Assembly (NCBI GenBank): GCA_900542905.1
Contig: UQPF01000005.1
Coordinates: 62,129 to 126,128, forward strand
Direction: 5' to 3'
Source: an uncultured Collinsella sp.
GTDB lineage: Bacteria > Actinomycetota > Coriobacteriia > Coriobacteriales > Coriobacteriaceae
DNA length: 64,000 bases
Position 1 is the first letter of the stretch. Every line of letters begins with the position of its first letter. A program made the position numbers and the translations under genes. The notes beneath the pieces were generated by a model. The model was not told the DNA's origin and ran no database searches. It was given only the letters and a program-made list of their open reading frames with translations. Below are positions 11,849 through 34,759 of the stretch, piece after piece.

Positions 11849-12364
11849 CTAGTACTCCACTCCTTCCCTTGCACATATCCCCTGCTCGTAGGGGTGTTTC
11901 TCGCACCGCATCTCGGTTATGTAGTCGGCCTTCTCCACGATCTTGCGGGAAGGCGCGCGCCCGGTGAGCGCCACTTCGACGCCGCGCGCGGACATATCGA
12001 GCGCGCGGTCCACGAGCACCTCGTCGACAAACCCCTTCGAAAGCGCGTCGAGCGCCTCGTCGAGCACGAGCAGCCCCTCCTGCGCGCCCTCGAGCTCGGC
12101 GAGCGCGGAAGCGAGGTTCCTATCGTGCAGCTCGCGCGTCGCGGCAAGTTCTTCCGACGTCATGGACCAGGTAAACTTGTCCGACGCCTTCCCCGCGAAC
12201 ACGGGCACGCCGAAATGCTCGGCGAGCAGGCGCACCTCCCCGCTTTCGCCGTCTTTCAGGAACTGCACGACGACGACGCGGCGGCCTGCGGCGAGCATGC
12301 GAAGGGCGAGGCCCATCGCCGCCGTGGTCTTGCCTTTGCCGTCGCCATGATACACGTGGATCAT
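11849..12364 (-). CDS. cobO: Cob(I)yrinic acid a,c-diamide adenosyltransferase
   Basis: 171 aa. MIHVYHGDGKGKTTAAMGLALR...VVQFLK matches the CobA/CobO/BtuR P-loop family. Confidence 0.9.
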   Translation of the reverse strand: MIHVYHGDGKGKTTAAMGLALRMLAAGRRVVVVQFLKDGESGEVRLLAEHFGVPVFAGKASDKFTWSMTSEELAATRELHDRNLASALAELEGAQEGLLVLDEALDALSKGFVDEVLVDRALDMSARGVEVALTGRAPSRKIVEKADYITEMRCEKHPYEQGICAREGVEY

Positions 12365-17812: not shown

Positions 17813-18357
17813 CTTGTAGGTCCTTCGCCTTTCATCCACACGGGAATCCCGCATACCACTTCGACTGCGCGGTCGGCCAGCGCCGCCACGCCCGCGTTCA
17901 CGCGCGCGAGCGCGCGCCTCCATACCTCGGTCCCCTCATCGTAGCGCATCCCATCGGCGAACACGTCGACGGTGACAACCACCGTATACGCAGCGGCCTG
18001 AGCGAGCCGTTCAATGCCTCCGAGCACCTCGCGCGCCACTGCGTCGGGGTCACGTGGGGACAAGCCGCCTTCCGCGAAAAGCTCGTTTGCAACCAGGTTG
18101 CCCACGTCCTCCAAAAGAAGCGTGCAGCCGCGCGGAAGCCCGGGCACTGCGGCGCCCACGTCACGCGTGCGCTCGAGGGTGGAAAACCCCTTGCCCTCGC
18201 GCAGCGCCCGATGGCGCGCGATGCGGCGGGCGCCCTCTTCCCCGAAGGGCCCCATCGTTGCCAGGTACACGCGAGGGCAGTCGTGCCCGAGGCACAGGGA
18301 CTCGGCGTAGGCGCTCTTGCCGCTCGCGGCGGCGCCGATGACGAGCGTCACCGTCAT
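17809..18357 (-). CDS. cobU: Adenosylcobinamide kinase / adenosylcobinamide-phosphate guanylyltransferase
   Basis: MTVTLVIGAAASGKSAYAE...RIARHRALR...LLEDVGNLVANE; 182 aa. ATGA overlap with the cobT stop. Confidence 0.9.
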   Translation of the reverse strand: MTVTLVIGAAASGKSAYAESLCLGHDCPRVYLATMGPFGEEGARRIARHRALREGKGFSTLERTRDVGAAVPGLPRGCTLLLEDVGNLVANELFAEGGLSPRDPDAVAREVLGGIERLAQAAAYTVVVTVDVFADGMRYDEGTEVWRRALARVNAGVAALADRAVEVVCGIPVWMKGEGPTR

Positions 18358-19496
18358 TTCCCGGCCTCGAAATGCTCGTAAGCAGCCATGCCAGTCGCCG
18401 TGAACGTCTTCCCATCCCGGTACACGCGCAGCGCCGAATCCAGAAGGGGCAGATACGCCATGGCGCCCGCGCCCTCGCCCAAGTGCATGCCTGCGTCGAG
18501 GGGTGCCTTTATGCCGAGCTCGCGAAGGAGCTCCTGGCTTGCGGGTTCGCTTGATGCGTGGGTGCCCACGAGGTAGCCCAAGGCGTTGGGGCACAGGCGC
18601 GCCGCGCACAAGGCCGCCGTGCAGGATATGACCCCGTCGAGGAGCGCCGGCGCCTTCGAGGCCGCGGCCCCCAGGTAGAAGCCGCACATCGCCGCGATGT
18701 CGAAGCCGCCCACCTTCGAGAGCACGTCGATCGGGTCGGCAGGATCGGGCGAGTTCGCGTCGATAGCGCGCTCGACCACGTCGCGCTTACGCGCGAGCGA
18801 GGCGTCCGAGAGCCCCGCGCCGCGCCCGACGAGGCTCCGCGCGTCCGCCCGGATGAGCACTGCGGCCACCGCCGCCGAGGTGGTCGTGTTGCCGATGCCC
18901 ATCTCGCCCGCGGCGAGAAGGCGCACGCCGGCGCGGACAAGCCCGCACGCGACGGCGATTCCGACATCGATCGCGCGCACGGCCTCATCGCGAGACATAG
19001 CGGAGCCGTGCGCGATGTTGCCGCTCCCCCGCCGTACGTTCGCGCGCACCATGCGCGCGTCTTCTATGCCCCGGGCCATACCCACGTCGACGGGCACGAC
19101 CTCGGCACACGCGAACGCCGCCATACGGCAGGCGCTCGTGGCCCCCTCGCACATGTTGCGCGCGACGGCTCGCGTCACGTCTTGCCCGCTTTGCGACACG
19201 CCTTCGGCAACGACCCCGTTGTCGGAGAAGAATACCGCGAGCGCACGGGGAAACTCGGCCACCTCGGAGCTCCCCTGAGCTGCGGCGATACACGCGACGG
19301 CGTCTTCAAAGTCGCCCAATCCCCCCAAGGGGTGCGCGATGGAGTCCCACGCGGCGTACGCGGCGGCGCGGGCGCACTCGTCTGCGGGCGTGATCCGGGA
19401 GAGCGCGGCTTCGAGCACGGCGCCCGGCGCCGACGAGAACGTGCGCTCAACTTCCTCGCGGATGCAGGCAAGCGCGGTTTCGGTTGCTTCAGCCAT
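18354..19496 (-). CDS. cobT: Nicotinate-nucleotide--dimethylbenzimidazole phosphoribosyltransferase
   Basis: GEMGIGNTTTSAA and HLGEGAGA motifs. The ATG at 19496 overlaps the cbiA stop by 8 nt. Confidence 0.92.
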   Translation of the reverse strand: MAEATETALACIREEVERTFSSAPGAVLEAALSRITPADECARAAAYAAWDSIAHPLGGLGDFEDAVACIAAAQGSSEVAEFPRALAVFFSDNGVVAEGVSQSGQDVTRAVARNMCEGATSACRMAAFACAEVVPVDVGMARGIEDARMVRANVRRGSGNIAHGSAMSRDEAVRAIDVGIAVACGLVRAGVRLLAAGEMGIGNTTTSAAVAAVLIRADARSLVGRGAGLSDASLARKRDVVERAIDANSPDPADPIDVLSKVGGFDIAAMCGFYLGAAASKAPALLDGVISCTAALCAARLCPNALGYLVGTHASSEPASQELLRELGIKAPLDAGMHLGEGAGAMAYLPLLDSALRVYRDGKTFTATGMAAYEHFEAGK

Positions 19497-20871
19497 GCCG
19501 TCTCCTCTCTGCGAACGACGCTGCGGCAGACGCGAACGCGCGCGCAACGTCGGGGTTCGCAGGATAGTACACATGCGGGAAGCCCGCAACCAGGGACGGG
19601 GTTGTCGTCATGCACGGCCAGCCCTTGTCGCGCCGGGGCTTCTGCGCCCAGAAGTCGCCGCCCGGGCAGGTGGACTGCCAGTAGTGGAACTCGTGCGCGC
19701 GGATGCGTGTGCCGCACGGCCCGTAGAGCCCGTCGCGTTGGGAAGTGAGCTCCACGTACCCGAAATGGGACAGCCTTCCCCCGTTCTCGCTTGCGCCCTC
19801 AAGGGCGCCCGCAACAGGCCAGCGCCGCCCCTCGCTATCGGAGATTTCGCGCTGCAGGTACAGAAACCCACCACATTCGGCGACCGTCGGCATGCCGGAT
19901 TCCACCGCGCGCCGCACCGCCTCGCGCATCGGTGCGTTCTCGGAGAGCTGCCGTACATGGAGCTCCGGGTAGCCGCCCCCCAGATAGAGGGCGCTTGTCC
20001 CCCGGGGCAACTCGCTATCACACAGGGGGCTGAAAAAGGCCAGCTCGCAACCCAGGTCCTCGAGCGCGCGCAGGTTCTCCTCGTAGTAGAACGAGAACGC
20101 CTCGTCACGCGCGACGGCGACGATGGGCCGCGCTCCCGCGATCGGCTCCAACCGGTAAGGTTCCTCGCGGATATCGGGTGCCGTCGCCGCTATTTCGAGC
20201 AAGCGGTCAATGTCGACGCTCTTTTCCACCAGCTCGGCCATCTTGTCGATGCGCGCGGAGAGCTGCTCGACCTCGTCGGCGGTCACAAGCCCCAGATGCC
20301 GGCTTTCGAGCGAGAACGCCTCGTCGGCGGGAATATTACCCAAAACCGCGACGCCCGTGTGCTTCTCGATCGCAGGCGCCGCGTAGGCGCAGGCAGCGGC
20401 GCTCGTCTTGTTCAGCACGACGCCGCGCACGTTCGCACAAGGCAGGAACTCGGCGATGCCGCGAATTACGGCGGCGAGCGATAAAGACGCCCCGCGCCCG
20501 TTCACCACTAAAACGACCGGCGTTTCCGTGTCGCGCGCAACCTGGTAGCTGCTCGCGTCGGCCACGCCGGGCGCCATGCCGTCGTAGAAGCCCATGACCC
20601 CCTCGAGCACCGCGACATCCGCGCCCGCGGCGCCGCGTGCGAGCAGGGCGCGCAGCGTCCGGGCGTCGGTGAAGAAGCCGTCTAAGTTGCCCGAGCGCGC
20701 GCCCACGACGCGGCGATGAAAGAGCGGGTCAATGTAGTCGGGGCCGCATTTGAAGGCCGCGCATGCGAGGCCGCGGCGCGCAAGCGCGCGCAGGAGCGCG
20801 CACGTAACGACCGTCTTGCCGCTCCCGCTCGAGGGCGCAGCGACCATGAAACGCGGGATGGTCGTGCTCAC
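19489..20871 (-). CDS. cbiA: Cobyrinate a,c-diamide synthase
   Basis: (V)STTIPRFMVAAPSSGSGKTVVTCALLRAL... with a C-terminal GATase domain (ECGGFLYL). The GTG at 20871 overlaps the cbiET stop. Confidence 0.9.
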   Translation of the reverse strand: MSTTIPRFMVAAPSSGSGKTVVTCALLRALARRGLACAAFKCGPDYIDPLFHRRVVGARSGNLDGFFTDARTLRALLARGAAGADVAVLEGVMGFYDGMAPGVADASSYQVARDTETPVVLVVNGRGASLSLAAVIRGIAEFLPCANVRGVVLNKTSAAACAYAAPAIEKHTGVAVLGNIPADEAFSLESRHLGLVTADEVEQLSARIDKMAELVEKSVDIDRLLEIAATAPDIREEPYRLEPIAGARPIVAVARDEAFSFYYEENLRALEDLGCELAFFSPLCDSELPRGTSALYLGGGYPELHVRQLSENAPMREAVRRAVESGMPTVAECGGFLYLQREISDSEGRRWPVAGALEGASENGGRLSHFGYVELTSQRDGLYGPCGTRIRAHEFHYWQSTCPGGDFWAQKPRRDKGWPCMTTTPSLVAGFPHVYYPANPDVARAFASAAASFAERRRHG

Positions 20872-22217
20872 CGGGCGCCGCCTTCCCCACCCGCACCACG
20901 CGCGCTGACGAGGAACACGGGGTTTTGCGCCTTCATAAGATGGTGCGAGCCTACAGCCTCGGCGCGGGCGGCCGACACCTGGCACGCCTCGAACCCCTTA
21001 AAGCGCGAACCCGAGAGAAGCGCGCACGCCTCGGTGAGCGTCTCAACGGTGACGCATGGCACGCACAGGCGAACCTGCGAGTTCTTCTCGAGCGCCGCCT
21101 CCACGATAGAGGGAAGCTCGCCCGCGCTCCCGCCGACGAACACGGCGTCGGGGACGGGCAGTTTCGCGAGCGCTTCGGGGGCGACACCGGGGACCGCATG
21201 CACGTTGCCGCACCCGAATGCATCCGCGTTCTCTCGGATGAGCCGCACGCCGGCCGCGTTGCGCTCGACCGCCCATACCGACCCCGCTCGCGCGACGAGC
21301 GCCGCCTCAATCGACACGCTCCCCGTGCCGGCTCCGACGTCCCACACGGTGTCGGTCGCGGTAAGGCGCAGCTTCGCGAGCGCGACGGCGCGCACCTCCT
21401 GCTTGGTCATGGGAACGTCGCCGCGGATGAAGAGCTCGTCGGGAATGCCCGAGGAAGCGTACGGCCAGCGGGAGCTCGCGGCGCGGGATGCGCCCGCAGG
21501 GTCCGCCGCGGAAGAAGCCGCCGCGGGCGATGACGCGCCGGCCGGCGCCTCGGAGGCTGCGCTAGAGCCCGCAGGCGACCCGGCGCCGCCTGCGAACTCG
21601 ATAAGCATCACGTTCAAGTCGTCAAACGTCTGACCTGCGATTTCACTTGCGGTCGCGCAGGTGATGCGCTCGTCAGGGTACGACAGGCGCTCGGCCACCG
21701 TCACGCGCGCGTCCCCGAAGCCCGCTTGCGCAAGCTCGCACGAAAGCCGCGAGGGGTCTTCCCCGCCCGACGTGACGAGGAAGAGCTCACCTGCGCGCTC
21801 GGCCTCGGCCACGATGTCGCACGCCACGCCGTGAGCGCTCGCAAAGCGCCAATCCTGCCATGGACGCGCGAGGCGCGCGGCGAGATACGACGCTGAGCTT
21901 ATGCCGGGAATGACGCGCACGTCCACCTGCGCGTTGCCGGAGAGCGCCTCCACCAGGCGGCGCGCGCCGCTGAACAGCCCCACATCGCCCGTCATCACGA
22001 CCACGGCGCGCTGCCACGACGCCGCATCGGTGAGCGCGGCGGCGATGTCCGCCGTCTTCACGAGCTCGCATCTCACCACGTCGGGCGGCACGTCGATGCC
22101 GGCAAGCGCGCGATGAGCGCCGATGACCACGTCGGCGATGTCGATCGCGTCGAGCGCCGCGCGCGAGAGCAAGTCGGGGTTTCCGGGCCCCGCCCCGATG
22201 ATCGTTACCTTTCGCAT
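20868..22217 (-). CDS. cbiET: Cobalt-precorrin-6B/7 C5,C15-methyltransferase (decarboxylating), CbiE-CbiT fusion
   Basis: MRKVTIIGAGPGNPDLLS (CbiE) and VWDVGAGTGSVSIEAA (CbiT SAM motif). The halves are joined by an Ala/Ser/Pro-rich linker. Confidence 0.9.
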   Translation of the reverse strand: MRKVTIIGAGPGNPDLLSRAALDAIDIADVVIGAHRALAGIDVPPDVVRCELVKTADIAAALTDAASWQRAVVVMTGDVGLFSGARRLVEALSGNAQVDVRVIPGISSASYLAARLARPWQDWRFASAHGVACDIVAEAERAGELFLVTSGGEDPSRLSCELAQAGFGDARVTVAERLSYPDERITCATASEIAGQTFDDLNVMLIEFAGGAGSPAGSSAASEAPAGASSPAAASSAADPAGASRAASSRWPYASSGIPDELFIRGDVPMTKQEVRAVALAKLRLTATDTVWDVGAGTGSVSIEAALVARAGSVWAVERNAAGVRLIRENADAFGCGNVHAVPGVAPEALAKLPVPDAVFVGGSAGELPSIVEAALEKNSQVRLCVPCVTVETLTEACALLSGSRFKGFEACQVSAARAEAVGSHHLMKAQNPVFLVSARGAGGEGGAR

Positions 22218-22951
22218 GAAATCTCCCGATACCCGCGCGGCGTGACCATACGGCCGCCTACGAGCCTCGTGTCCGCGTTGCCGACGAACACGGTGGTGAA
22301 CATGTCGGCGTCGATCTCCCCCAGCTCGGAGAGCCTGCACATGCCCGACTGCTGCCCCTCGCGCCCGATGTTGCGTACCCAGCCGCAGAGCGTGTCGGGG
22401 GCCTTCCATTCGAGCATAATCTTCGCCGCGCGTGAGAGCCTGTCGGCGCGCTTTCTGCTGCGCGGGTTGTACAAACAGATGCAGAAGTCGGCGCTCGCCA
22501 CGGCGGCGAGCCTGCGCTCGATGACCTCCCATGGCGTGAGCAGGTCGGAGAGCGACACGACCGCGAAGTCGTGGGCAAGCGGGGCGCCGAGCACCGCCGA
22601 CCCGCTCTGAGCCGCGGTGGCCCCGGCGATAACTTCCACGTCTACATCGGGGTAGTCCTCCGCAAGCTCCAGCACAGGGCTCGCCATGCCGTACACGCCC
22701 GCGTCACCGCTGCACACGAGCGCCACGGCTTCTCCGCTCTGCGCGCGCGAAAGCGCCAGGCGGCACCGTTCGACCTCGTGCATCATCGGCGTCGCGAGAT
22801 GCGCCGCGTCAGGCACGGCGGCGAGCGCGAGCTCCACGTATTTCGTGTACCCCACAACGATGTCGGCCGCCTCCAGCGCGCGCCGAGCCGCAATCGTCAT
22901 GCCGTCGGGGCCGCCCGGGCCGATCCCCACCACGAAGAGCTTTCCCATCAC
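22205..22951 (-). CDS. cbiH: Cobalt-factor III / precorrin-3B C17-methyltransferase
   Basis: MMGKLFVVGIGPGGPDGMT...VCSGDAGVYGMA...; 248 aa. Confidence 0.92.
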   Translation of the reverse strand: MMGKLFVVGIGPGGPDGMTIAARRALEAADIVVGYTKYVELALAAVPDAAHLATPMMHEVERCRLALSRAQSGEAVALVCSGDAGVYGMASPVLELAEDYPDVDVEVIAGATAAQSGSAVLGAPLAHDFAVVSLSDLLTPWEVIERRLAAVASADFCICLYNPRSRKRADRLSRAAKIMLEWKAPDTLCGWVRNIGREGQQSGMCRLSELGEIDADMFTTVFVGNADTRLVGGRMVTPRGYREISCER

Positions 22952-24081
22952 CGCTCCTTAAACGAAAGTTCGATAGTTACCCTGGAAAACGCGACGGTCA
23001 CGCCGCCGTGAGCAAGCTTCGGGAAGATCAGTTTACCCCCGTCCGCGAGCGCCGCGCGCTCGCACACGTTGTCGACCCCCACCGTCGCGCGCACGAAATC
23101 AGATGGCGAAACGCTGCCTTCGACCTGCGACAACTCCTCTGCGGAATACGTCGTAAGCGGGATATTGCGCGCGCGGCAGAAGGCGAGCAGACCCTTCTCG
23201 TGCGCCTTCACGTCGATCGTCGCCGCCTCGCGCACGGCCGAAGGCGAGATGCCCGCCTGCCCGCACGCGAGAAGAAACGCCTCCCCGATCGCTTCGGCGC
23301 ACGCACCGCGACGGCACCCTATGCCCGCAACGATGCAGGGCACGACAAGGCGAAGCGGCTCGGGCGCAGGCGCCTGCGCCCGCACGCACGCTGGCTTCCC
23401 AGTTTCACCGTCGGGCACGACCTCGCCCGTTGTCTCCGCCGCGCGAACGAACGCACCTGCATTCGCGCCAGCGAACGGTGACACGACGATATCGGCCCGA
23501 GCGCGGTCGGACGCAATGTCAACCCCCTCAGGCGGCTGTCCCGAAATCGGCATGTCGGAATAGAGCGCCACGCGCCCGCCCGAAAGCAGCCTCGCCGACA
23601 CTCGCTTGATAGCCTCGGGATTCGAAACGGCGAGCCCCTCACAGCGCGCCCACGTATCCACCGCCCACACGCCGCGGACGTCGGTCGCCGTTGTGATGAC
23701 GGGGATGGCCCCTGCCGCGCGTGCCACAGTTTGCGCAAGCTCGTTCGCACCGCCCAAATGCCCCGACAAAAGCGGGACGGCAAAGCGCCCCGCCTCGTCG
23801 ATCACCACAACCGCGGGATCTTTTGCCTTCGAGGCGACATGCGGCGCGATCGCCCGCACGGCGATGCCCGCCGCGCCGACGAACAGAAGCGCGTCCGACG
23901 CTTCCCACGCGAGCGCCGTCCATGCGCGCAGGTCGGCCTTCCCCTCGCCGAACCCGCGCGAAACGGAAACGTTCCAGCCAGGGTCATCTTCACCTGTCTG
24001 CGCGCAATCGGAAAGCGCGCGTGCGGTGCGCTCCGCCAACGCATACCCCCTCTCAGTGAACGCTATGCAGGAAATCCTCAT
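22948..24081 (-). CDS. cbiG: Cobalt-precorrin-5A hydrolase
   Basis: 377 aa with CbiG N- and C-terminal domain character (VVGIGCRRG...). ATGA overlap with cbiH. Confidence 0.85.
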   Translation of the reverse strand: MRISCIAFTERGYALAERTARALSDCAQTGEDDPGWNVSVSRGFGEGKADLRAWTALAWEASDALLFVGAAGIAVRAIAPHVASKAKDPAVVVIDEAGRFAVPLLSGHLGGANELAQTVARAAGAIPVITTATDVRGVWAVDTWARCEGLAVSNPEAIKRVSARLLSGGRVALYSDMPISGQPPEGVDIASDRARADIVVSPFAGANAGAFVRAAETTGEVVPDGETGKPACVRAQAPAPEPLRLVVPCIVAGIGCRRGACAEAIGEAFLLACGQAGISPSAVREAATIDVKAHEKGLLAFCRARNIPLTTYSAEELSQVEGSVSPSDFVRATVGVDNVCERAALADGGKLIFPKLAHGGVTVAFSRVTIELSFKER

Positions 24082-24315
24082 CTAGCGCACTACCATCGTC
24101 GAGAAGTAGCTGCCCCGATCGGGCACATCGTCGAGCGAGCGGTACACGCGCTCGCCCGGAAGACCACAGTCCTCTACGAGCTCGGCACCGTCGAAGGCGC
24201 CCTCCTCGCGAAGGATGCGCTTCGTGTCCGCAAGCGAGCGGCGCGCCTTCATGACCACCTTCGTCCCCGACCAGCCGATCACGCGGGGCACCCCGTACAG
24301 AACGCCTTTACTCAT
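24082..24315 (-). pseudogene. cbiL: Internally deleted remnant of cobalt-factor II / precorrin-2 C20-methyltransferase (77 codons)
   Basis: MSKGVLYGV resembles the CbiL N-terminus (MxGKLYGVGxGPGD). KVVMKARRSLADTKRILREEG...CGLPGERVYRSLDDVPDRGSYFSTMVVR resembles the last ~65 residues of CbiL. Only 234 nt lie between cbiD and cbiG, so about 150 residues of the methyltransferase core are absent. Confidence 0.7.
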
Positions 24316-25492
24316 ACGTCGCCCCCAATTCCCCGATAACTGCATCGGCGCCCGACGTGCGGAAAAGCTCGCGGCGCTCGGCGTCGAACACGACCGCGGC
24401 GATGTCGCATGCGCCCGCCGCGCGGCGGCGCAACCTGTCCTCGATTGCCGCAGCGAGCGAGGCGCGCGCAGCGTCCCCCACGCCGGCGGCCTCGATTACC
24501 TCGAGCGCCACCGTGGTCGTGACGGACGTCATGATCTCGCGCACGGTCTTCGCGCCCGCGCCGGCCATGGCCGCGTGGGCGGCCAGAATCTCCGCGCGGC
24601 AGTCGGCGGTACGCGAATGGGTGTCCATGATGCCGCCCGCGACCTTCACCAGCTTGCCGATGTGTCCCACAAGAAGGACATTGGTGAATCCCTCGCGAAC
24701 GCAGCAATCAATCGCATCGCCTACAAAGTTGGAGATAAAGACCACCGGCGCACCGTTTAGGTGGAAATGCCCCGAGATGAACTGCGCGCCGTAGTTGCCG
24801 GGCGTGAGCACGACTCCGCGCCGCCCCATAGCCGCATGCTGCCGAATCTCGAGCACGATGCTGTCGCGCAAGGCAGCGAGGCTGCGCGGCTCGACGATGC
24901 CCGTCGTGCCCAGGATGGAGATGCCGTCCTTTATCCCCAGGTGCGGGTTGAAGGTCTTTTCGGCAAGGGCAACGCCCTCGGGTACAGAAATCGTCACAGC
25001 AATATTTCCAGAAAAGACGTGCGCGGCGCACACCTCGCGAACCGCCGAAGTGATCATCGCGCGCGGCGTCGCGTTGATGGCGGCCGCCCCCACCGGCTGC
25101 TCGAGCCCGGGCAACGTCACGCGCCCCACGCCCACGCCGCCATCGACGGAAACTTCCGATTCGCGCGCGGGCACGCCCTTGCTGCCCGCAGCACCCGTGC
25201 CCGACCCCGCATGTTCCACGCGCGCGTACACGAGCACGCCGTCGGTCACATCGGCATCGTCGCCTGCGTCCTTTCGCACGGCGCACTGGGCGCACCCCTC
25301 GCCGATGCATGCGTCGACCACGTTCGCTTCGACGGGCAGCCCGCCGGGGGTGACGATCGACACGAGGCCGACGGGCTTTCGTGACAAGAGCATCTCGCAG
25401 GCCGCCTTCGCCGCGAGCGCGGCGCAGCTCCCCGTGGTGTAGCCGCAGCGCAGGCGGGTCGTCCCGGTATATATGTAGTGCTCGAAGGCCAC
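24308..25492 (-). CDS. cbiD: Cobalt-precorrin-5B C1-methyltransferase
   Basis: GTG at 25492, 1 nt after the cbiF stop. ...LRCGYTTGSCAALAAKAA... is a typical CbiD N-terminus. Confidence 0.9.
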   Translation of the reverse strand: MAFEHYIYTGTTRLRCGYTTGSCAALAAKAACEMLLSRKPVGLVSIVTPGGLPVEANVVDACIGEGCAQCAVRKDAGDDADVTDGVLVYARVEHAGSGTGAAGSKGVPARESEVSVDGGVGVGRVTLPGLEQPVGAAAINATPRAMITSAVREVCAAHVFSGNIAVTISVPEGVALAEKTFNPHLGIKDGISILGTTGIVEPRSLAALRDSIVLEIRQHAAMGRRGVVLTPGNYGAQFISGHFHLNGAPVVFISNFVGDAIDCCVREGFTNVLLVGHIGKLVKVAGGIMDTHSRTADCRAEILAAHAAMAGAGAKTVREIMTSVTTTVALEVIEAAGVGDAARASLAAAIEDRLRRRAAGACDIAAVVFDAERRELFRTSGADAVIGELGATYE

Positions 25493-25493
25493 G

Positions 25494-26285
25494 CTAGCTG
25501 CTCGCCTTCCGATACCCCGTGGCAAAAGAAGGGTCGTAAAGCTTGCTGCGCTCGTACGACTCCGCTTGCGCGCCGTTGTGCGCAAGCCCGCCGCGAGCTC
25601 CGAGCACGCGGCCCACCACCACGAGCGCCGTGCGGTCGATGCCCTCTCGCGCGCCCGCATCGGCGAGCGTGCCCACTGTGCATCGCACCACGCGCTCCTC
25701 AGGCCAGGTCGCCTTGTACACGAGCGCCGCCGGCTCGTCGGAACTGCGGCCCGCGGCCAAAAGCTCGGCGGAAAGCTCGGCGAGCATACCCGAGCTCAGG
25801 AAGATGACCATGGTCGAGCCGCTTTCCGCCATGGTGCGCATGCCCTCGCCCGCGGGCATGGGGGTGCGTCCGGAAAGCCGCGTGATCACGACCGACTGGC
25901 TGATTCCCGGCAGCGTGTATTCCTGGCGAAGTGCCGCCGCGGCACCGCAAAAGCTCGACACGCCGGGCACCACCTCGTAGTCCACGCCGTGCGCGTCGAG
26001 CGCGTCCATCTGCTCCTGGATGGCGCCGTACAGGCACGGGTCGCCCGTGTGCAGGCGCACCACTTCCTCGCCCCGCGCGTCTGCCGCGCACATCACGTCG
26101 AGCACTTCCTCCAAGGTCATGTGCGCGCTGTCGTAGACGATGCAGGATTCCTTGCACTCAGCGAGCAGCTCGGGGTTCACAAGGCTTCCCGCCCAAACGA
26201 CCACGTCGGCTGCGCGCAGAAGGCGCGCCCCGCGCAGCGTGATAAGGTCGGTGGCGCCCGAGCCTGCGCCAACGATATGAATCAT
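25494..26285 (-). CDS. cbiF: Cobalt-precorrin-4 C11-methyltransferase
   Basis: MIHIVGAGSGATDLITLRGARLL...LHTGDPCLYGA...; the ATG at 26285 is preceded by GGGAAGGGAAGG. This is the first gene of the minus-strand operon. Confidence 0.92.
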   Translation of the reverse strand: MIHIVGAGSGATDLITLRGARLLRAADVVVWAGSLVNPELLAECKESCIVYDSAHMTLEEVLDVMCAADARGEEVVRLHTGDPCLYGAIQEQMDALDAHGVDYEVVPGVSSFCGAAAALRQEYTLPGISQSVVITRLSGRTPMPAGEGMRTMAESGSTMVIFLSSGMLAELSAELLAAGRSSDEPAALVYKATWPEERVVRCTVGTLADAGAREGIDRTALVVVGRVLGARGGLAHNGAQAESYERSKLYDPSFATGYRKASS

Positions 26286-26445: not shown

Positions 26446-26496
26446 AGTAAAAGTTTCGGCAACGAGCATATGACAATCGGATAAAAGGAAATGACC

Positions 26497-26700
26497 GGCG
26501 CGGCGCCCGCACAGCCCGCGCTGGCTTGCGGAGGGAACCAGGTGGGAATCCTGGGCAAGGGACATTACTGTATAGGACGCGCGGGCGAACCGCCTCGCGC
26601 CCCAAGCCAGACTGCTTCGCCTTTTCCTCACGGCATCGCCGTGGCGTTAGCTCCTTGTGAACCCCGAGGGGTGCGCTTTTCTTTCGCTTGTGCCGACAAG
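26497..26700 (+). promoter_or_regulatory. Cobalamin (B12) riboswitch
   Basis: Conserved core AGGGAACCAGGTGGGAATCCTGGGC...ACTGTA at 26532-26575. B12-box-like AAGCCAGACTGC at 26604-26615. The enclosing helix is CTGGCTT (26521-27) / AAGCCAG (26604-10). CCTTTTCCTC (26620-29) is complementary to the cbiK SD. Confidence 0.75.
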
Positions 26701-26743
26701 CAACTGTCGCCGGGGGACCGGCAAACCGAGGAAAGGAAAAACC

Positions 26744-27670
26744 ATGTCCGACCAGATGTCACGCCGCGGCTTCATGGGCGCCGCAGCAACCGGAGCCGTC
26801 GCGCTCGCCGGAGTCGCGCTCGCGGGCTGCTCCAACACCTCCGCGAGTTCCGAGAAATCGAGTGAAAAGGAGAAGGCCGTGAAGCCGGTCATCCTCGTCA
26901 CGAGCTTCGGCACGAGCTACAACGACTCGCGCCACATCACCATCGGCGCCATCGAAGACGCTATCCGCGAGAAGTACTGGCAGGACTACGACATCCGCCG
27001 CGCCTTCACCGCGCAGATCATCATCGACAAGCTGAAGAAGCGCGACGGCATCACGATCGACAACATGACCGAGGCGCTCGACCGCTGCGTGGAAGACGGC
27101 GTGAAGGAAATCGTCGTGCAGCCGACGCATCTCATGGGTGGCCTGGAATACACCGACGTGAAAGACGAGCTCGACAAGTACGCCGACAAGTTCGACAAAA
27201 TCTCGCTCGGCGACCCGCTGCTCACCTCCGACGACGACTACAAGAAGGTGGCCGCAGCCATTAAGGAGAACATGGCGTCCTTCGACGACGGCAAGACGGC
27301 GCTGTGCCTCATGGGCCACGGCACCGAAGCCGATTCCAACGCCGACTATGCCAAGATGCAGGAAGTGTTCAAGAACGAGGGCTTGACGCAGTTCTTCGTC
27401 GGCACCGTCGAGGCTGAACCGACCTGCGAGGATGTTATCGCCGCCGCGAGCGCCGCAGGCTACAAGAAGGCCGTGCTCGCGCCGTTCATGGTGGTCGCGG
27501 GCGACCACGCGAACAACGACATGGCAGACGAGACCGACCCCGACAGCTGGGCTGCGAAGTTCGTGGCCGCCGGCTTCGAAGTGACGTGCCTGCTCCAGGG
27601 TCTGGGACAGAACGTCGCGGTCGACGACATCTACGTCTCGCACGTGGACGACGCCATCGCCAAGCTGTAA
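26744..27670 (+). CDS. cbiK: Sirohydrochlorin cobaltochelatase homologue with Tat signal and lipobox (predicted extracytoplasmic lipoprotein)
   Basis: MSDQMSRRGFMGAAATGAVALAGVALAGC (SRRxF twin-arginine motif + LAGC lipobox). The mature part aligns to CbiK: ILVTSFGTSY, LMGHG, GTVEAEP, VAGDHANNDMA. SD GAGGAAAGGA lies upstream. Confidence 0.85.
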   Translation: MSDQMSRRGFMGAAATGAVALAGVALAGCSNTSASSEKSSEKEKAVKPVILVTSFGTSYNDSRHITIGAIEDAIREKYWQDYDIRRAFTAQIIIDKLKKRDGITIDNMTEALDRCVEDGVKEIVVQPTHLMGGLEYTDVKDELDKYADKFDKISLGDPLLTSDDDYKKVAAAIKENMASFDDGKTALCLMGHGTEADSNADYAKMQEVFKNEGLTQFFVGTVEAEPTCEDVIAAASAAGYKKAVLAPFMVVAGDHANNDMADETDPDSWAAKFVAAGFEVTCLLQGLGQNVAVDDIYVSHVDDAIAKL

Positions 27671-27814: not shown

Positions 27815-28348
27815 ATGTTGAAGAAAACCCTCGCCTTCGCCCTGTCGGCGGCGCTTTTCGCGTTCTCGCTCGCCGGCTGCGGCGGAAATTCAATCGACAG
27901 CGCAAAGGCAAGCGATGCCGATTCCCAGGAAAAGACCGAACAGGTGGCCGATGCGCCCGAGGGCGCAAGCGCTGCCCCCATCACCGCCGACAAGGTGGCC
28001 GACGGCACCTATCCGATCACCGTAGATTCCAGCTCGAGCATGTTCAGGATTGTGGACGCCCAGCTCATCGTGGAAAACGGCTCCATGCACTGCGTGATGA
28101 CACTTTCCGGCACGGGCTACGGCAAGCTCTTCATGGGCACGGGCGACGAGGCTGCCGCCGCGAGCGAGGCCGACTTCATCCCCTATGCGGAAAACGCGGA
28201 AGGCAAGTACACCTACGACGTGCCCGTCGAAGCGCTCGACGAGGACACCGCCTGTGCCGCGTGGAGTATTAGAAAAGAGCGGTGGTACGACCGCACGCTC
28301 GTATTCGAATCCGCCGGCGTCGATCTGCGCGCCGACGCGCTGAAGTAA
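27815..28348 (+). CDS. Small lipoprotein of unassigned family (177 aa)
   Basis: MLKKTLAFALSAALFAFSLAGC lipobox signal with SD AAAGGA upstream. The mature domain is paralogous to the N-terminal domain of the next ORF. Confidence 0.75.
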   Translation: MLKKTLAFALSAALFAFSLAGCGGNSIDSAKASDADSQEKTEQVADAPEGASAAPITADKVADGTYPITVDSSSSMFRIVDAQLIVENGSMHCVMTLSGTGYGKLFMGTGDEAAAASEADFIPYAENAEGKYTYDVPVEALDEDTACAAWSIRKERWYDRTLVFESAGVDLRADALK

Positions 28349-28352
28349 CGCC

Positions 28353-29924
28353 ATGCGGTCGATTCTTCCCAAGGGGGAAAGCAGGAAGCGTCGCAGCATC
28401 GCGGTGCGCGTGATCGCCTGCATTCTCGTCGCCCTGCTCGCGCTTCCTTTCGCGGGGTGCAGTGCGAGCCCGAACGCGACCGGTGGCACGGCAGGCTCTC
28501 AGGAATACACTGTGAGCGTCTCGCTTTCCGGCGGGTCAGGGCGCGCAAGCATCGCCTCACCCACCGCAATTGTGAAGGATGGCGACACCTACACCGCGAC
28601 CATCACCTGGTCGAGTTCGAACTACGACAAGATGACCGTCGACGGCGTGGACTACGCGCCCGTAAACGACGGCAGCAACTCCACGTTCGAGATACCCGTC
28701 ACGCTCGACGAGGACATGGCCGTGTCGGCCGAGACCGTCGCCATGTCGACGCCGCACACCATCGACTACACGATCCACTTCGACTCATCCACCATGAAGG
28801 AGAAATCGGGCGACGATGCAAGCGGCGGCTCCCCTGCGGGAACGGCTTCAAGCGCCGCGGCCGACTTCCACAACGCAGATTTGGGCTGCGGCTGGGAGCC
28901 GACGGGGACGCTTCAGCTAGAATACGCCAAGCACTTCACTATCGACGAGTACGAAGGCGGCCTGCGGCTTATCTGCATTTCGAACGGGGAGCGCTTCCTC
29001 GTGGTGCCGCAAGATGCGAAGGTACCTGATGGGTTGAGCTCCGACATCGCGGTCATAAGGCGCCCCACCGACAAGGTGTACCTCGTGTCGTCGGCGACGA
29101 TGTGCCTGGTCGACGCGCTCGATGCGAACGACAATATCATCATGTCGGGCACGAAGGCCGACGATTGCTCGGTCGCGGGCTTCAAAAGCGCACTCGAAAG
29201 TGGGGAGATCGCCTACGGCGGCAAGTACAGCGCGCCCGACTACGAGCGAATATCGGCCTCGGGCTGCACGCTCGCCATCGAGAACACCATGATCAACCAC
29301 ACACCCGATGTGAAGGAAAAGCTGCAGAAACTCGGGCTCGTCGTGCTCACCGAACAGTCGTCGAGCGAGCCCGAAGCACTCGGGCGCGTCGAGTGGATTA
29401 AGCTTTTCGGCGTCCTGTTCGACAAGGAAGACGAGGCCGCGCACCTGTTCAACGAGCAGAAGGCCCGCGTCGAGCAAACGTCGGGGCTCGCGTCGTCAGG
29501 TAAAACCGTGGCGTATTTCTACATTAACTCGAACGGGGCCGCCGTCACGCGGCGGGCGGGCGACTACGTGGCGCAGATAATCGAGCTTGCAGGCGGCAGC
29601 TACGCGCTCGATGACGCGCAGACGGCGTCGACGTCAGGTTCGTCAGTAACGCTCGAAATGGAGCGCTTCTACGCGACGGCGAAGGATGCCGACATCATCG
29701 TCTACAACGGCACCATCGACGAATCGGTTGCCACCTTGAACGACTTCGTAGGCAAAAACGCGCTATTGTCGCAGTTCAAAGCCGTGAAGAACGGCAACGT
29801 CTGGGTCACAAGCGCCGACATGTACCAGCAGATGACTTCTACCGCCGACATTATCGACGAACTGCACGGGGCGTTCACCGGCGATGACGCGAGCGACTTC
29901 CATTATCTGAGGAAGCTCGGCTAG
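28353..29924 (+). CDS. Lipoprotein: unassigned N-terminal domain + cluster-A/type-II ABC substrate-binding domain (FecB/BtuF-like, Peripla_BP_2)
   Basis: Lipobox LPFAGC. The extra domain is aa ~50-146. From aa ~185 there is Peripla_BP_2-like sequence (KVYLVSSATMCLVDALDA..., EWIKLFGVLFDKEDEA). Confidence 0.8.
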   Translation: MRSILPKGESRKRRSIAVRVIACILVALLALPFAGCSASPNATGGTAGSQEYTVSVSLSGGSGRASIASPTAIVKDGDTYTATITWSSSNYDKMTVDGVDYAPVNDGSNSTFEIPVTLDEDMAVSAETVAMSTPHTIDYTIHFDSSTMKEKSGDDASGGSPAGTASSAAADFHNADLGCGWEPTGTLQLEYAKHFTIDEYEGGLRLICISNGERFLVVPQDAKVPDGLSSDIAVIRRPTDKVYLVSSATMCLVDALDANDNIIMSGTKADDCSVAGFKSALESGEIAYGGKYSAPDYERISASGCTLAIENTMINHTPDVKEKLQKLGLVVLTEQSSSEPEALGRVEWIKLFGVLFDKEDEAAHLFNEQKARVEQTSGLASSGKTVAYFYINSNGAAVTRRAGDYVAQIIELAGGSYALDDAQTASTSGSSVTLEMERFYATAKDADIIVYNGTIDESVATLNDFVGKNALLSQFKAVKNGNVWVTSADMYQQMTSTADIIDELHGAFTGDDASDFHYLRKLG

Positions 29925-29928
29925 CACC

Positions 29929-30969
29929 ATGAAAAGCCGACTTTCCATGACATACGACGAATCGGGGCGCGCCGCGCGGTGTCGCGTCGTGACGGCGCTG
30001 CTCGCTGTTGCCCTCATCGTGCTCGTCGGGGCCAACCTGTGCATCGGGAGCGTGCTCGTGCCAGCAGACCACATCCCCGGCATCCTTTCGGGCGGCGCGG
30101 CCAATTCCATGGAAAGCCAGGTCATCTGGGAGATTCGCCTGCCGCGCGTGCTTTCAGCCGTGCTTCTCGGCGGGGCGCTTTCCCTCTCCGGGTTCCTGCT
30201 GCAGACGTTTTTCAACAACCCCATCGCCGACCCGTTCATCTTGGGCGTCTCCTCGGGTGCAAAGTTCGTCGTAGCGCTTACGATGATTGTACTTCTGGGC
30301 GCGAACCAGGCCATGTCCTCCCCGGCCATGGTGGCCGCAGCGTTTCTGGGCTCGCTTATCACCATCGGCTTCGTGCTCCTCATCGCACGGCGCATAAGTT
30401 CCATGGCCATACTCATCGTGGCGGGCGTCATGGTGGGATACATCTGCTCGGCGGCGACGAACTTCCTCATCGCCTTCGCCGACGACCAGTCCATCGTGAA
30501 CCTGCACAACTGGTCTTTGGGTAGCTTCTCGGGTTCGAGCTGGGACGACATCGCGGTCATCGCGGTCGTGGTGATCACCGTGAGCGCATGCGTATTCGCG
30601 ATATCGAAGCCCCTTTCCGCCTTCCAGCTGGGAGAAGCCTACGCGAAAAGCGTCGGCGTGAACGTCGCACGCTTCCGCGTGGTGCTCGTCCTTCTAGCGA
30701 GCATGCTCTCCGCCTGCGTGACCGCGTTCGCTGGTCCGGTGTCGTTCGTAGGCATCGCGGTTCCGCATCTCGTTAAGTCGGCGCTGAAGTCGTCGAAGCC
30801 TATCCGCGTGATTCCTGCGTGCTTCTTGGGAGGCGCCATCTTTTGCGCGGGCTGCGATTTGATCGCGCGCACGCTGTTCTCCCCCGTCGAGCTTTCCATC
30901 AGCGCCGTCACCGCCATCTTCGGCGCGCCGGTGGTTATTGCACTCATGTTGAAGAAGCGGGTGAGGTAG
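29929..30969 (+). CDS. ABC importer permease, FecCD/BtuC family
   Basis: 346 aa with ~10 TM segments and family motifs (IRLPRVL, GGALSLSG, PIADPFILGVSSGA, FVGIAVPHL). Confidence 0.92.
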   Translation: MKSRLSMTYDESGRAARCRVVTALLAVALIVLVGANLCIGSVLVPADHIPGILSGGAANSMESQVIWEIRLPRVLSAVLLGGALSLSGFLLQTFFNNPIADPFILGVSSGAKFVVALTMIVLLGANQAMSSPAMVAAAFLGSLITIGFVLLIARRISSMAILIVAGVMVGYICSAATNFLIAFADDQSIVNLHNWSLGSFSGSSWDDIAVIAVVVITVSACVFAISKPLSAFQLGEAYAKSVGVNVARFRVVLVLLASMLSACVTAFAGPVSFVGIAVPHLVKSALKSSKPIRVIPACFLGGAIFCAGCDLIARTLFSPVELSISAVTAIFGAPVVIALMLKKRVR

Positions 30970-32286
30970 ATGGGGGAATTCGTGCCGCGGACCAAAACGC
31001 TCGGAGGGAACATTCCATGCTTGGCCAGTTCTGAGCTCGCACGAAAGCGCCAGAAGGCACTTTCGGCTCGTGCGGAACTGCGCGCGGAACGCCTCCTTCG
31101 AGCGGAGTCGAACCTCGAAACCCCGGTAAAAACGCAGGCTGACGGAGCGCCGCTTTTCCGCATAAGCGACCTGTCGGCGGGCTACGACAAGAAGGTCGTA
31201 GTCGAAGGCGTCGATCTGGAGGTTCGCGCGGGCGACGTCGTGGCACTCATCGGGCCGAACGGCTCGGGCAAGTCGACCATCTTGAAAACCATCACACGCC
31301 ATCTGGCACCGCTTGCCGGCGCGGTCGAGCTCGACGGGCGGGAGATTTCCCGATGGAAGACGGCGGAGTTCGCAAGGAACCTTGCCGTTATGCTGACAGA
31401 TCGCCCCCGAACCGAGCTCCTCACCTGCCGCGATATCGTAGAGGCGGGAAGGCATCCCTACACCGGGCGAATGGGCGCACTCACGCCCGACGACCATAAT
31501 CGGGTCGACGAGGCCATGAAAACCGCACATGTGGAAAAGCTTGCCGAGCGCGACTTCATGCAGATAAGCGACGGGCAACGCCAGCGCGTCATGCTCGCAC
31601 GCGCCATCGCGCAGGATCCGCGCGTGCTCGTGCTCGACGAGCCCACGTCGTATCTCGATATCCGCTACCAGATCGACCTGCTGCGAATACTTCGCCACCT
31701 TGCGAAATCGCGGAATGTTGCTGTCATCATGTCCATCCACGAACTCGAGCTCGCGCAGAAAAGCGCCGACAAGGTGATTTGCGTGAAGGACGGCCGGGTC
31801 TTCCGCGCCGGCGCACCCGAGGACATATTCACGCGCGAGACGATTGGCGAGCTCTACGGCCTGCAACATGGCACCTTCAACGAGCGCTTCGGCAGCGTGG
31901 AAATTGGGCGCCCGCACGGCGATGCGCACACGTTCGTCATCGCCGGCGCAGGTACGGGGTCGGCTGTGTTTCGCCAGCTCATCCGGCAGGGCAAGGCGTT
32001 CTACGCGGGCGTTCTGCACGAAGGGGACATCGACTGCGAGCTCGCGCGCGACCTGGCGACGGAATGCGTGGCCGAGCGCGCCTTCGAGCCGATCGGGGAT
32101 AAAACCATAGCCCGCGCCAAAGAGCTCCTCGTCCACTGCACGCGCCTTATCGTGTGCCCCGCCGCCTTCGGCACCATAAACGCCCGCAACGCAGAGCTCG
32201 TCGAGTTCGCACGCTCGCATGGTATCGAGGTCATGCGAGCGTGCGAAGGCGCATCGGAGGATTCCCAATTGGAGTGGGAAGGATAA
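30970..32286 (+). CDS. ABC importer ATP-binding protein (FepC/BtuD-like) with an extra ~130-aa C-terminal domain
   Basis: Walker A GPNGSGKST, signature ISDGQRQRV, Walker B LVLDEPTSYLD, H-loop SIHEL. The ~60-aa N-terminal extension is uncertain (an alternative GTG lies at 31126). Residues ~308-438 lie beyond the normal ABC cassette. Confidence 0.85.
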   Translation: MGEFVPRTKTLGGNIPCLASSELARKRQKALSARAELRAERLLRAESNLETPVKTQADGAPLFRISDLSAGYDKKVVVEGVDLEVRAGDVVALIGPNGSGKSTILKTITRHLAPLAGAVELDGREISRWKTAEFARNLAVMLTDRPRTELLTCRDIVEAGRHPYTGRMGALTPDDHNRVDEAMKTAHVEKLAERDFMQISDGQRQRVMLARAIAQDPRVLVLDEPTSYLDIRYQIDLLRILRHLAKSRNVAVIMSIHELELAQKSADKVICVKDGRVFRAGAPEDIFTRETIGELYGLQHGTFNERFGSVEIGRPHGDAHTFVIAGAGTGSAVFRQLIRQGKAFYAGVLHEGDIDCELARDLATECVAERAFEPIGDKTIARAKELLVHCTRLIVCPAAFGTINARNAELVEFARSHGIEVMRACEGASEDSQLEWEG

Positions 32287-32397
32287 ACTGGACTTTTTTT
32301 AAGGATCCTCAGGCTACAGCTCCTACGCCGGCGAGGTCTCCAAGGCGCCGGAGAACCTCGTGAACAGGAATTTCCACGCCGACGAGCCCAACTAGGC

Positions 32398-34583: not shown

Positions 34584-34660
34584 TGGTAGCCCGTACCAGA
34601 TTCGAACTGGTGATCTCCGCCTTGAGAGGGCGGCGTCCTAAACCGCTAGACGAACGGGCC
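34584..34660 (-). tRNA. tRNA-Glu (anticodon CUC), CCA encoded
   Basis: Hand-folded cloverleaf of GGCCCGTTCGTCTAGCGGTTTAGGACGCCGCCCTCTCAAGGCGGAGATCACCAGTTCGAATCTGGTACGGGCTACCA. The anticodon stem is CCGCC/GGCGG, the loop is CT-CTC-AA, and the T-loop is TTCGAAT. Confidence 0.9.
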
Positions 34661-34682: not shown

Positions 34683-34759
34683 TGGTAGCCCGTACCAGAT
34701 TCGAACTGGTGATCTCCGCCTTGAGAGGGCGGCGTCCTAAACCGCTAGACGAACGGGCC
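34683..34759 (-). tRNA. tRNA-Glu (anticodon CUC), second identical copy
   Basis: 77/77 nt identical to 34584-34660, separated from it by a 22-nt spacer. Confidence 0.9.

Follow-up and report, generated by a model that had tools for sequence, protein, structure and literature searches.

Why does a gene of the cobaltochelatase family, lying next to a cobalamin (B12) operon, encode a protein with an export signal? The question is raised by cbiK, at positions 26744-27670 of a 64,000-nucleotide stretch of DNA from an uncultured Collinsella sp. (contig UQPF01000005.1, positions 62,129 to 126,128), which was analysed as a whole and is called the window here. An initial annotation had noted a twin-arginine translocation (Tat) motif and a lipobox on this chelatase and had called its export unexpected for an enzyme of corrin biosynthesis. 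We found that it is no stray biosynthetic gene: cbiK heads a transcribed five-gene operon, encoding CbiK, a lipoprotein with a predicted NEAT fold, a binding protein fused to a second such domain, a BtuC-like permease and a BtuD-like ATPase, behind a riboswitch-like leader. We consider it rather probable that these genes specify an extracytoplasmic, B12-regulated system for the capture and import of a B12-family cobalt tetrapyrrole from outside the cell. The features of the operon are as follows.

26471-26743, plus strand: 5' leader of the cbiK operon (RNA 5' ends concentrated at 26471)
26483-26631, plus strand: cobalamin-riboswitch-like element, short P6 type (Rfam, conservation, compensatory pairs)
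26744-27670, plus strand: cbiK-family gene, 308 amino acids (stop-free frame, Pfam, motif alignment)
26762-26767 and 26828-26830, plus strand: Arg-Arg codons and Cys29 codon of the putative CbiK signal peptide, residues 1-28 (sequence motifs)
27317-27319, 27410-27412 and 27506-27508, plus strand: codons of the metal-site residues H192, E223 and H255 (alignment with solved structures)
27815-28348, plus strand: 177-residue Sec-type lipoprotein (MLKK...LAGC) with NEAT-fold domain A (AlphaFold2 and Foldseek)
28353-29924, plus strand: 523-residue lipoprotein with a KRR and FAGC signal, NEAT-fold domain B and Peripla_BP_2 (Pfam, AlphaFold2 and Foldseek)
29947-30969, plus strand: FecCD-family permease (best NCBIfam match BtuC)
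30970-32286, plus strand: ATP-binding cassette (ABC) ATPase with a C-terminal MJ0874 domain (best match an archaeal corrinoid transporter ATPase)

CbiK, its metal site and its export signal

The translation of 26744-27670 is identical to the protein quoted in the initial annotation, and GGAAAGGA directly precedes the ATG. Residues 50-305 match the Pfam CbiK family (PF06180) with 265.1 bits against a cut-off of 26.2, spanning profile positions 3-261 of 262. Alignment with the solved structures 1qgo, 9b86 and 2xvx placed His192 (LMGHG), Glu223 (VGTVEAEP) and His255 (AGDHA) on their GHG, VE and GDHA motifs, in agreement with the earlier claim that the metal-site residues are kept. All three are invariant among the 12 orthologues aligned (65-88% identity). 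The best match among solved structures was Salmonella enterica CbiK (1qgo/2xwp; 154 bits over residues 47-305), which shares SFGTS, GHG, VE and GDHA-NDMA. However, the Salmonella protein is a cytoplasmic sirohydrochlorin cobaltochelatase without a signal peptide, and its gene lies inside the cbi operon beside cbiL.

The window protein scored 225.4 bits with the NCBIfam equivalog NF047852, below the cut-off of 400 bits. It is also not a signal-less cytoplasmic CbiK, as SRRGF, a hydrophobic stretch and LAGC stand ahead of the domain. Because the Pfam score lies above its cut-off while the equivalog score lies below and a signal precedes the domain, we file the protein as a putative exported CbiK paralogue and not as the biosynthetic enzyme. 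The gene is intact in 86 of 86 Collinsella loci, and its ratio of nonsynonymous to synonymous substitution rates (dN/dS) is 0.18 across the 77 distinct sequences; these ratios are within-species values from gap-free sets, which recombination may blur. In the public assembly collection, 8,726 indexed blocks contain exactly this protein.

Six-frame searches of the 64 kb, for which the queries were the CbiK core and nine CbiKs of cytoplasmic type, revealed no second copy, CbiX, CobN and SirB types not being specifically searched, and family scans of the other large open reading frames (ORFs) of the window found no second chelatase. The earlier statement that this is the only chelatase in the B12 region was thus upheld for CbiK-type sequences.

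The N-terminal region S6-R7-R8-G9-F10-M11-G12 fits the twin-arginine consensus S/T-R-R-x-F-L-K, and it is followed by a Gly/Ala-rich hydrophobic stretch and the lipobox L26-A27-G28-C29. R7, R8 and Cys29 are invariant in the 12 orthologues, while the remainder of the signal and the Ser-rich linker are variable. This is the pattern predicted by selection on a Tat-lipoprotein signal, and the Tat motif and lipobox cysteine of the initial annotation were thus upheld. A profile check gave a divided result: Pfam TAT_signal matches 8 of the 12 orthologues, the best with E=3.5e-4 but still under the curated score, while the window protein itself is unreported at E<=10. We also considered a wrong start codon or a chance motif, and rejected these readings. 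Gene callers sometimes start at the upstream GTG (26657), but the residues gained in this way are not conserved, and a chance motif was dismissed because the arginine pair and Cys29 are invariant while the neighbouring residues vary. No TatA, TatC, Lgt or Lsp was recognised among the scanned ORFs of the 64-kb window. From these motifs we infer the location of the window CbiK, which is almost certainly exported and lipid-anchored.

The operon, its partners and its leader

To describe transcription of the region, we used stranded RNA-seq data from three runs of the same species as the window. We found 390-456 molecule ends at 26471, where the depth jumps from ~20 to ~1,900. A single RNA contig covers 26455-32265 and passes through all five genes. 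The depth is ~2,000 over cbiK, the most transcribed gene of the operon, and drops to ~200-290 over the ATPase gene; the divergent cbiF transcript has a depth of ~280. These observations show that cbiK lies nearest to the promoter of an uptake operon, is the most strongly expressed of its genes and does not belong to the biosynthetic transcript. Two minor observations were made in the same data. Antisense (minus-strand) RNA with a depth of 300-600 covers the 3' half of the operon (29000-32300), which may be read-through from convergent genes on the TetR side. In the RNA-seq strain, ~80% of the reads have an additional C after 27807, between cbiK and the gene for the NEAT lipoprotein, a strain difference that does not affect coding.

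The second gene encodes the 177-residue lipoprotein. The core of its domain A was modelled by AlphaFold2 with a predicted local distance difference test (pLDDT) score >90, and the top 28 Foldseek matches in the PDB were all NEAT domains with probability 1.0, including Hbp2, IsdA, IsdH, IsdC and Shp. The Pfam NEAT family (PF05031) gave 13.9 bits for this protein against a cut-off of 32.8, and it matched 11 of 30 relatives (best E=1.7e-7). Searches of the 177-residue protein against solved structures, as a single sequence and as a profile, returned noise only, and the NEAT link is visible by fold comparison alone.

The third gene encodes the 523-residue lipoprotein, with domain B at residues ~49-150 (~28497-28800) and Peripla_BP_2 at residues 245-488 (Pfam). 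For domain B, the top 39 Foldseek matches were all NEAT domains with probability 1.0, the best being IsdX1 with a target-normalised TM-score of 0.66. According to these models, both accessory domains adopt the NEAT beta-sandwich fold. By inspection of alignments, the YxxxY haem-iron ligand motif was seen neither in domain A, which ends WYDRTLVF, nor in domain B (IDYTIHFD). Relatives of ~290 residues carry domain A followed by domain B, and the window domain B is 48-61% identical to their C-terminal domain. Another protein (P0116) carries domain A as a C-terminal fusion to a Tat-lipoprotein CbiK. Through this domain shuffling, CbiK, the two NEAT domains and the binding protein are linked into a single extracytoplasmic unit. 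Comparison of the binding protein with solved structures gave weak matches to BtuF and BauB only, which are not diagnostic. Its signal (28353-28460) reads MRSILPKGESRKRRSIAV...PFAGC, with a KRR motif and a lipobox, and the binding protein may also be a Tat lipoprotein.

The importer genes resemble those of corrinoid transporters. The permease scored 209 bits with the BtuC model NF003001 (cut-off 334), and Pfam FecCD was recorded for the identical gene in locus L001. The ATPase scored 250 bits with NF007082 (cut-off 537), and PF27219 was recorded in loci L001-L006. Neither protein reaches its BtuCD equivalog cut-off, and haem and siderophore models score only slightly lower. Gene calls for the ATPase range from 404 to 438 residues among strains, and blastn alignments of the gene are interrupted close to both its 5' and its 3' end, indicating that its termini differ between strains. 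The interval between the ATPase and TetR genes also varies in content (15484-18321 in L001, 15630-17159 in L002 and L006): in some genomes it holds a 477-residue radical SAM gene, together with an insertion sequence (IS) element (HTH_Tnp_1 and rve) in L001, and the window interval, 32287-32397, has neither a radical SAM gene nor an IS element.

The leader contains GGGAACCAGGTGGGAATCCTGGGCAAGGGACATTACTGT and, further downstream, AAGCCAGACTGC, which correspond to the conserved core and the B12 box of cobalamin riboswitches. The core is almost invariant across the 86 Collinsella loci. A riboswitch-like leader is present in the window and in the related loci L007, L008 and L091. For the two flanking helices, four distinct sequences were compared: compensatory changes occur in 5 of 11 pairs, and 95.5% of the cells are paired, against 32-59% when the partners are slid. 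An RNAalifold fold of the four leaders was non-canonical because the 5' part was misaligned, and it was set aside. In a locus with a Firmicute-type tandem CbiK, a NEAT protein, a binding protein, FecCD and an ATPase (L090), a canonical riboswitch of 102.8 bits lies upstream. Taken together, these data suggest that the window leader is probably a riboswitch, through which B12 would repress the operon in this organism. There was no sign of iron control by Fur or DtxR in the window. The sole hint of iron control that we saw is in L090, where a gene for a DtxR-family iron-dependent repressor (7737-8108) lies ~1.3 kb upstream of the CbiK module.

The host pathway, relatives and known systems

The B12 genes of the window lie head to head with the cbiK operon.

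10437-26285, minus strand: divergent B12 operon of 17 genes (NCBIfam assignments)
24082-24315, minus strand: cbiL remnant of 77 amino acids, ~10 N-terminal and 67 C-terminal residues (in-frame deletion of the methyltransferase core)

The operon comprises cbiF, cbiD, the cbiL remnant, cbiG, cbiH, cbiET, cbiA, cobT and cobU, followed by cobS, cobC, cbiB, cobD, cobQ, cobO, cbiC and cbiJ. The 17-gene operon described in the initial annotation is thus real and has no chelatase inside, but one of its 17 genes is a remnant. By the NCBIfam assignments, the operon holds no chelatase, precorrin-2 synthase, hem gene or recognisable cobalt transporter, and intact cbiL, precorrin-2 synthase (SUMT) and hem genes are absent from the window, whose remaining genes are housekeeping genes.

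The cbiL remnant aligns only to residues 165-231 of the CbiL of C. tanakaei (E=2e-19) and to positions 163-229 of TIGR01467. Across the C. aerofaciens complex, 44 loci have the remnant, including the type strain ATCC 25986, 27 have an intact cbiL, and one (L057) has another in-frame deletion. The remnant keeps its overlap with cbiD and its junction with cbiG. Since two separate in-frame deletions are found, this suggests selection to keep the downstream genes translated. The dN/dS of cbiK is 0.18 in the cbiL-deleted and 0.16 in the cbiL-intact strains, and cbiF, cbiH and other ring genes are still under purifying selection. A scan of genome contigs found 80 loci, nearly all labelled Collinsella and including C. 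aerofaciens ATCC 25986, with CbiK 98-100% identical; the scan thus covers near-identical loci of the C. aerofaciens complex and does not extend to paralogues or distant relatives. From the blastn survey of gene integrity we used only the cbiK and cbiL counts and the gap-free dN/dS sets, as it is too crude for the variable segments of cbiET and the ATPase.

The host of the window is a member of the C. aerofaciens complex. Published genome analyses classify C. aerofaciens ATCC 25986, Collinsella sp. 4_8_47FAA and C. tanakaei as "precorrin-2" salvagers (Shelton et al., PMC6461909, Table S10). All three are without 5-aminolevulinic acid synthase, porphobilinogen synthase, hydroxymethylbilane synthase, uroporphyrinogen III synthase and precorrin-2 synthase (PMC6461909). 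C. aerofaciens needs B12 although cbi genes are present, and precorrin-2 auxotrophy was suggested (Rodionov et al., PMC6593275). With the early pathway missing from these genomes, the host would make no cytoplasmic substrate for a chelatase.

In Coriobacteriia, the module lies beside the cbi operon in three layouts: divergent (the window, L007 and L008), on the same strand after cbiJ (L009) and convergent (L091). To survey relatives of CbiK more widely, we searched 1.84 billion representative proteins exhaustively and took the nearest 147 clusters at 50% identity; signal-peptide calls in the surveys are heuristic. We found ~73 clusters with signal-peptide-like N-termini (33 with a lipobox) and 32 that look cytoplasmic. 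SLH, CWB2, choline-binding or Ig/fn3 modules are found on large relatives. As the signals of Firmicute and Bacteroidota relatives are of the Sec type, the Tat route is a habit of the lineage and not the key feature. Since about half of the nearest clusters carry signal peptides and exported CbiKs are known from IhtB/FetB and CbiKP, the export of CbiK, called unexpected in the initial annotation, is not unprecedented. Literature searches returned nothing relevant on exported CbiK in Gram-positive bacteria or on NEAT folds with corrinoids or B12. Two results of the survey were discarded. Matches to PF25290, a lambda-carrageenase domain, on tandem-CbiK relatives are a spurious overlap with the CbiK domain, and a cytoplasmic-looking Coriobacteriia-like CbiK (P0148) lies on a 2-kb contig with uninformative context. 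Tandem and multi-domain surface proteins of Firmicute type (P0012, P0142, P0144, P0183, P0226; L158, L169) share a conserved linker, (N)YETGDASLDNPRNQDGIGE, ahead of their CbiK domains.

A metagenome scan with FetB as query gave 80 loci, ~77 of which have a signal peptide or lipobox ahead of CbiK. Genes for FecCD and an ATPase typically lie downstream, in some cases accompanied by those for a NEAT protein and a binding protein. In 11 loci the downstream genes are followed or flanked by cbiL, cbiD, cbiF, cbiG or cbiH, and the gene orders include signal-peptide CbiK, FecCD, ATPase, cbiL. A cobalamin riboswitch above the Rfam gathering score lies upstream in 7 of 9 loci tested. With a sequence profile built from the Rfam-positive loci, a same-strand riboswitch was found upstream in 44 of the 68 loci with sufficient upstream sequence, within 700 nt in 34 of them. 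The pattern recurs in Actinomycetota, Bacteroidota, a probable Firmicute locus and many unclassified metagenome contigs. In several loci with a Gram-negative-type exported CbiK (L099, L102, L103, L107, L113, L116, L117 and others), the mature chain starts with a His-rich segment such as AGGHGHKAPK, and FecCD and ATPase genes follow directly, with no match to the window binding-protein probe between them. This hints that the His-rich CbiK may itself be the binding protein of the transporter, or a metal trap.

The closest known system is IhtABCDE of Porphyromonas gingivalis. Its CbiK-family lipoprotein IhtB/FetB (9b86) has an intact His/Glu/His site and aligns over residues 20-289 (132 bits). 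Genes for a binding protein, permease and ATPase are also part of the ihtABCDE locus (PMC12094164). FetB showed cobalt and manganese chelatase activity, with no iron chelation and no haemin dechelation (PMC13065792), while IhtB has been described as a haem-binding reverse ferrochelatase (PMC12094164). The riboswitch of P. gingivalis represses PGN_0704 in response to coenzyme B12 (Hirano et al., PMC3422912), and PGN_0704 and PGN_0705 are ihtA and ihtB (PMC3764172). P. gingivalis is also without precorrin-2 synthesis yet keeps the corrin pathway (PMC6461909). In the P. gingivalis locus that we examined (L092, 100% FetB), a 75.9-bit cobalamin riboswitch is followed by an ORF for a 757-residue receptor and then by fetB. 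The corrin pathway without precorrin-2 synthesis in this organism was reportedly called an "enigma" by Roper in 2000. In the field, IhtB is treated as a protein of haem and iron or of manganese porphyrin. The Iht system differs from the window in its Gram-negative host, a Sec signal of the signal peptidase II type (Sec/SPII), the outer membrane, the TonB-dependent receptor IhtA/BtuB and the absence of NEAT domains. The window system, in contrast, has a Gram-positive envelope, a Tat-type signal, two predicted NEAT folds and a head-to-head position with the cbi operon.

Three other systems share part of this design. CbiKP of Desulfovibrio vulgaris (2xvx) is an exported CbiK paralogue with a conserved site, aligning over residues 44-308 (117 bits), but it is soluble and periplasmic and not a lipoprotein. 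CbiKP is said to bind haem between its subunits through His residues (Lobo in 2008). Its segment EEFHGLLETAHAF, which has a His, aligns with LEYTDVKDELDKY in the window CbiK, which has none. D. vulgaris also has a cytoplasmic CbiK (Lobo 2008, cited in PMC13065792). The Isd-type haem relay of Firmicutes (IsdA/IsdC/IsdX1 to IsdE to IsdF) resembles the window in its surface NEAT folds, its Peripla_BP_2 lipoprotein and its FecCD-type ABC importer; the window differs in its very divergent sequences, the YxxxY motif not seen, the riboswitch-like leader and the chelatase-fold partner. BtuG of gut Bacteroides, which works with BtuB (PMC10404256), is a surface lipoprotein that hands a corrinoid to a transporter in a bacterium that depends on scavenging. 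It would be a functional analogue if the ligand here is a finished corrinoid, but the cell envelope of its host differs from that of Collinsella.

Proposed function, its rivals and minor observations

In the reading that we prefer, the Tat pathway would export CbiK, and a lipid anchor would hold it on the outer side of the membrane. The tetrapyrrole would pass from CbiK to the NEAT-fold lipoprotein, then to the NEAT-fused binding protein and finally to the BtuC-like permease with its BtuD-like ATPase; both the ligand and the direction of this hand-over are what we infer. Once imported, the compound would enter the cytoplasmic pathway of the divergent B12 operon, in a host unable to make precorrin-2. 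A ligand of the B12 family rather than haem is proposed because of the association with riboswitches, the synteny with cbi genes and the BtuC/BtuD-like importer. Taken together, this suggests that the module captures, and possibly loads with cobalt, a tetrapyrrole, scavenging the ring rather than building it.

How CbiK would act in such a system can be pictured in two ways. The one that we lean towards slightly, though it is tentative, is that CbiK is an extracellular enzyme that inserts Co2+ into scavenged sirohydrochlorin or precorrin-2, the product being imported. The imported cobalt complex would then go to CbiL and the later enzymes. The missing early pathway, the gene orders with CbiK, FecCD, ATPase and cbiL, the lack of a recognisable cobalt transporter and the cobalt and manganese activity of FetB fit this picture. 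It is also possible, at a probability that we set a little lower, that the CbiK cleft binds only ready-made corrinoids such as cobyrinate, cobinamide and cobamides. This second picture fits better than a chelatase feeding CbiL in one respect, because cbiL is deleted yet selection on cbiK is undiminished.

Several observations weigh against the preferred reading. The Rfam cobalamin model RF00174 (clan CL00101) matches 26490-26600 with only 16 bits (E=0.052), against a gathering score of 31.5; homologous leaders are also sub-threshold: that of C. tanakaei has 27.6 bits, and that of L091 reaches 30.7 bits with RF01482 (threshold 50). In the RNA-seq runs, whose growth conditions are not known, the RNA depth does not fall after the leader. 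Since cbiL is truncated here, cobalt-sirohydrochlorin could not proceed by the known route. A cytoplasmic chelatase may also be encoded elsewhere in the genome. To our knowledge, NEAT domains are known only as haem binders, and we know of no documentation that sirohydrochlorin is available in the gut.

That the structural neighbours of domains A and B are all haem-binding NEAT domains is the observation from which a haem or iron acquisition system could be argued, with an exported CbiK that binds haem or strips its iron, a NEAT relay as in Isd and an ABC transporter that imports haem or iron. IsdE as the best NCBIfam match of the C. tanakaei binding protein (weak, 29 bits), the published view of IhtB as a haem-binding reverse ferrochelatase (PMC12094164), the reported haem binding of CbiKP and the DtxR-type repressor gene ahead of the L090 module would agree with this. 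However, the control of the module points to B12, with riboswitches ahead of it across phyla, the one of P. gingivalis being B12-responsive (PMC3422912), and the module is physically linked to cbi operons. FetB is without iron chelatase or haemin dechelatase activity (PMC13065792), YxxxY was seen in neither NEAT domain, and the His-containing CbiKP segment EEFHGLLETAHAF faces LEYTDVKDELDKY in the window. We thus regard haem or iron acquisition as unlikely. Still less probable, in our estimate, is the capture of cobalt ions by CbiK as a substrate-binding protein or metallochaperone for Co2+, in place of CbiMNQO or NiCoT, transporters that the B12 operon lacks. The lack of a recognisable cobalt transporter in the B12 region, the conserved His/Glu/His site and the metagenome loci in which a signal-peptide CbiK, often starting with the His-rich GGHGHK, is directly followed by FecCD and ATPase genes without a binding-protein match are all consistent with ion capture. 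FecCD-type importers, by contrast, generally move chelates and not free ions, and a dedicated Peripla_BP_2 protein with two NEAT folds would suit a flat macrocycle and not an ion; the window CbiK also has no His-rich N-terminus.

The same low probability applies to an ordinary biosynthetic chelatase whose signal is unused, or which, as a Tat substrate, folds and inserts cobalt in the cytoplasm before export and so has a dual location. Tat substrates do generally fold before export, the active site is complete with Salmonella CbiK (154 bits) as its best structural match, the six-frame search found no other CbiK-type chelatase in the B12 region, and in L009 cbiK directly follows cbiJ on the same strand. 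Against this stand the invariant arginine pair and Cys29, the operon partners, which are all extracytoplasmic or membrane proteins, and the fusion of CbiK to a surface NEAT domain in P0116. Relatives in the same context carry Sec signals or cell-wall anchors, which preclude folding in the cytoplasm, the host makes no cytoplasmic substrate (PMC6461909), and the equivalog score of 225 bits lies below the 400-bit cut-off.

A wider proposal can be made, which is speculative and in our view rather doubtful as it stands: in precorrin-2 auxotrophs, among them Collinsella, P. gingivalis and many uncultured anaerobes, the synthesis of the B12 ring might start outside the cell, where an exported CbiK would insert cobalt into scavenged sirohydrochlorin or precorrin-2. 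NEAT-fold domains in Gram-positives and a BtuB-like receptor in Bacteroidota would serve as carriers. Cobalt-sirohydrochlorin would pass to a BtuCD-like importer, and the cytoplasmic enzymes from CbiL to CbiA would complete the ring. Cobalt and the macrocycle would thus enter together under feedback from a B12 riboswitch. C. aerofaciens is among the most prevalent Actinobacteria of the human gut, and Collinsella and P. gingivalis retain a costly corrin pathway without a known entry point, an enigma to which the exported chelatase and its importer can now be linked. In most of the relatives examined a cobalamin riboswitch controls this machine, and the same probably holds for the window. If the proposal is true, it would define, for gut and oral communities, a new class of B12 precursors exchanged by cross-feeding, and calls of "B12 producer" from genomes would change. 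NEAT folds would gain a non-haem ligand, and the Iht system of P. gingivalis would be recast as a system of the B12 pathway and not of iron. If the ligand is a finished corrinoid, the operon would still be an undescribed Gram-positive apparatus for B12 capture.

Two further observations were made. The locus in L057 (Ellagibacter isourolithinifaciens DSM 104140) and in L036 (Firmicutes bacterium AF25-13AC) is 98-100% identical to that of Collinsella, and these labels are probably due to contamination or mislabelling. In the window, two tRNA-Glu(CUC) genes lie 23 nt apart on the minus strand, at 34584-34660 and 34683-34759, and their aligned sequences are identical.

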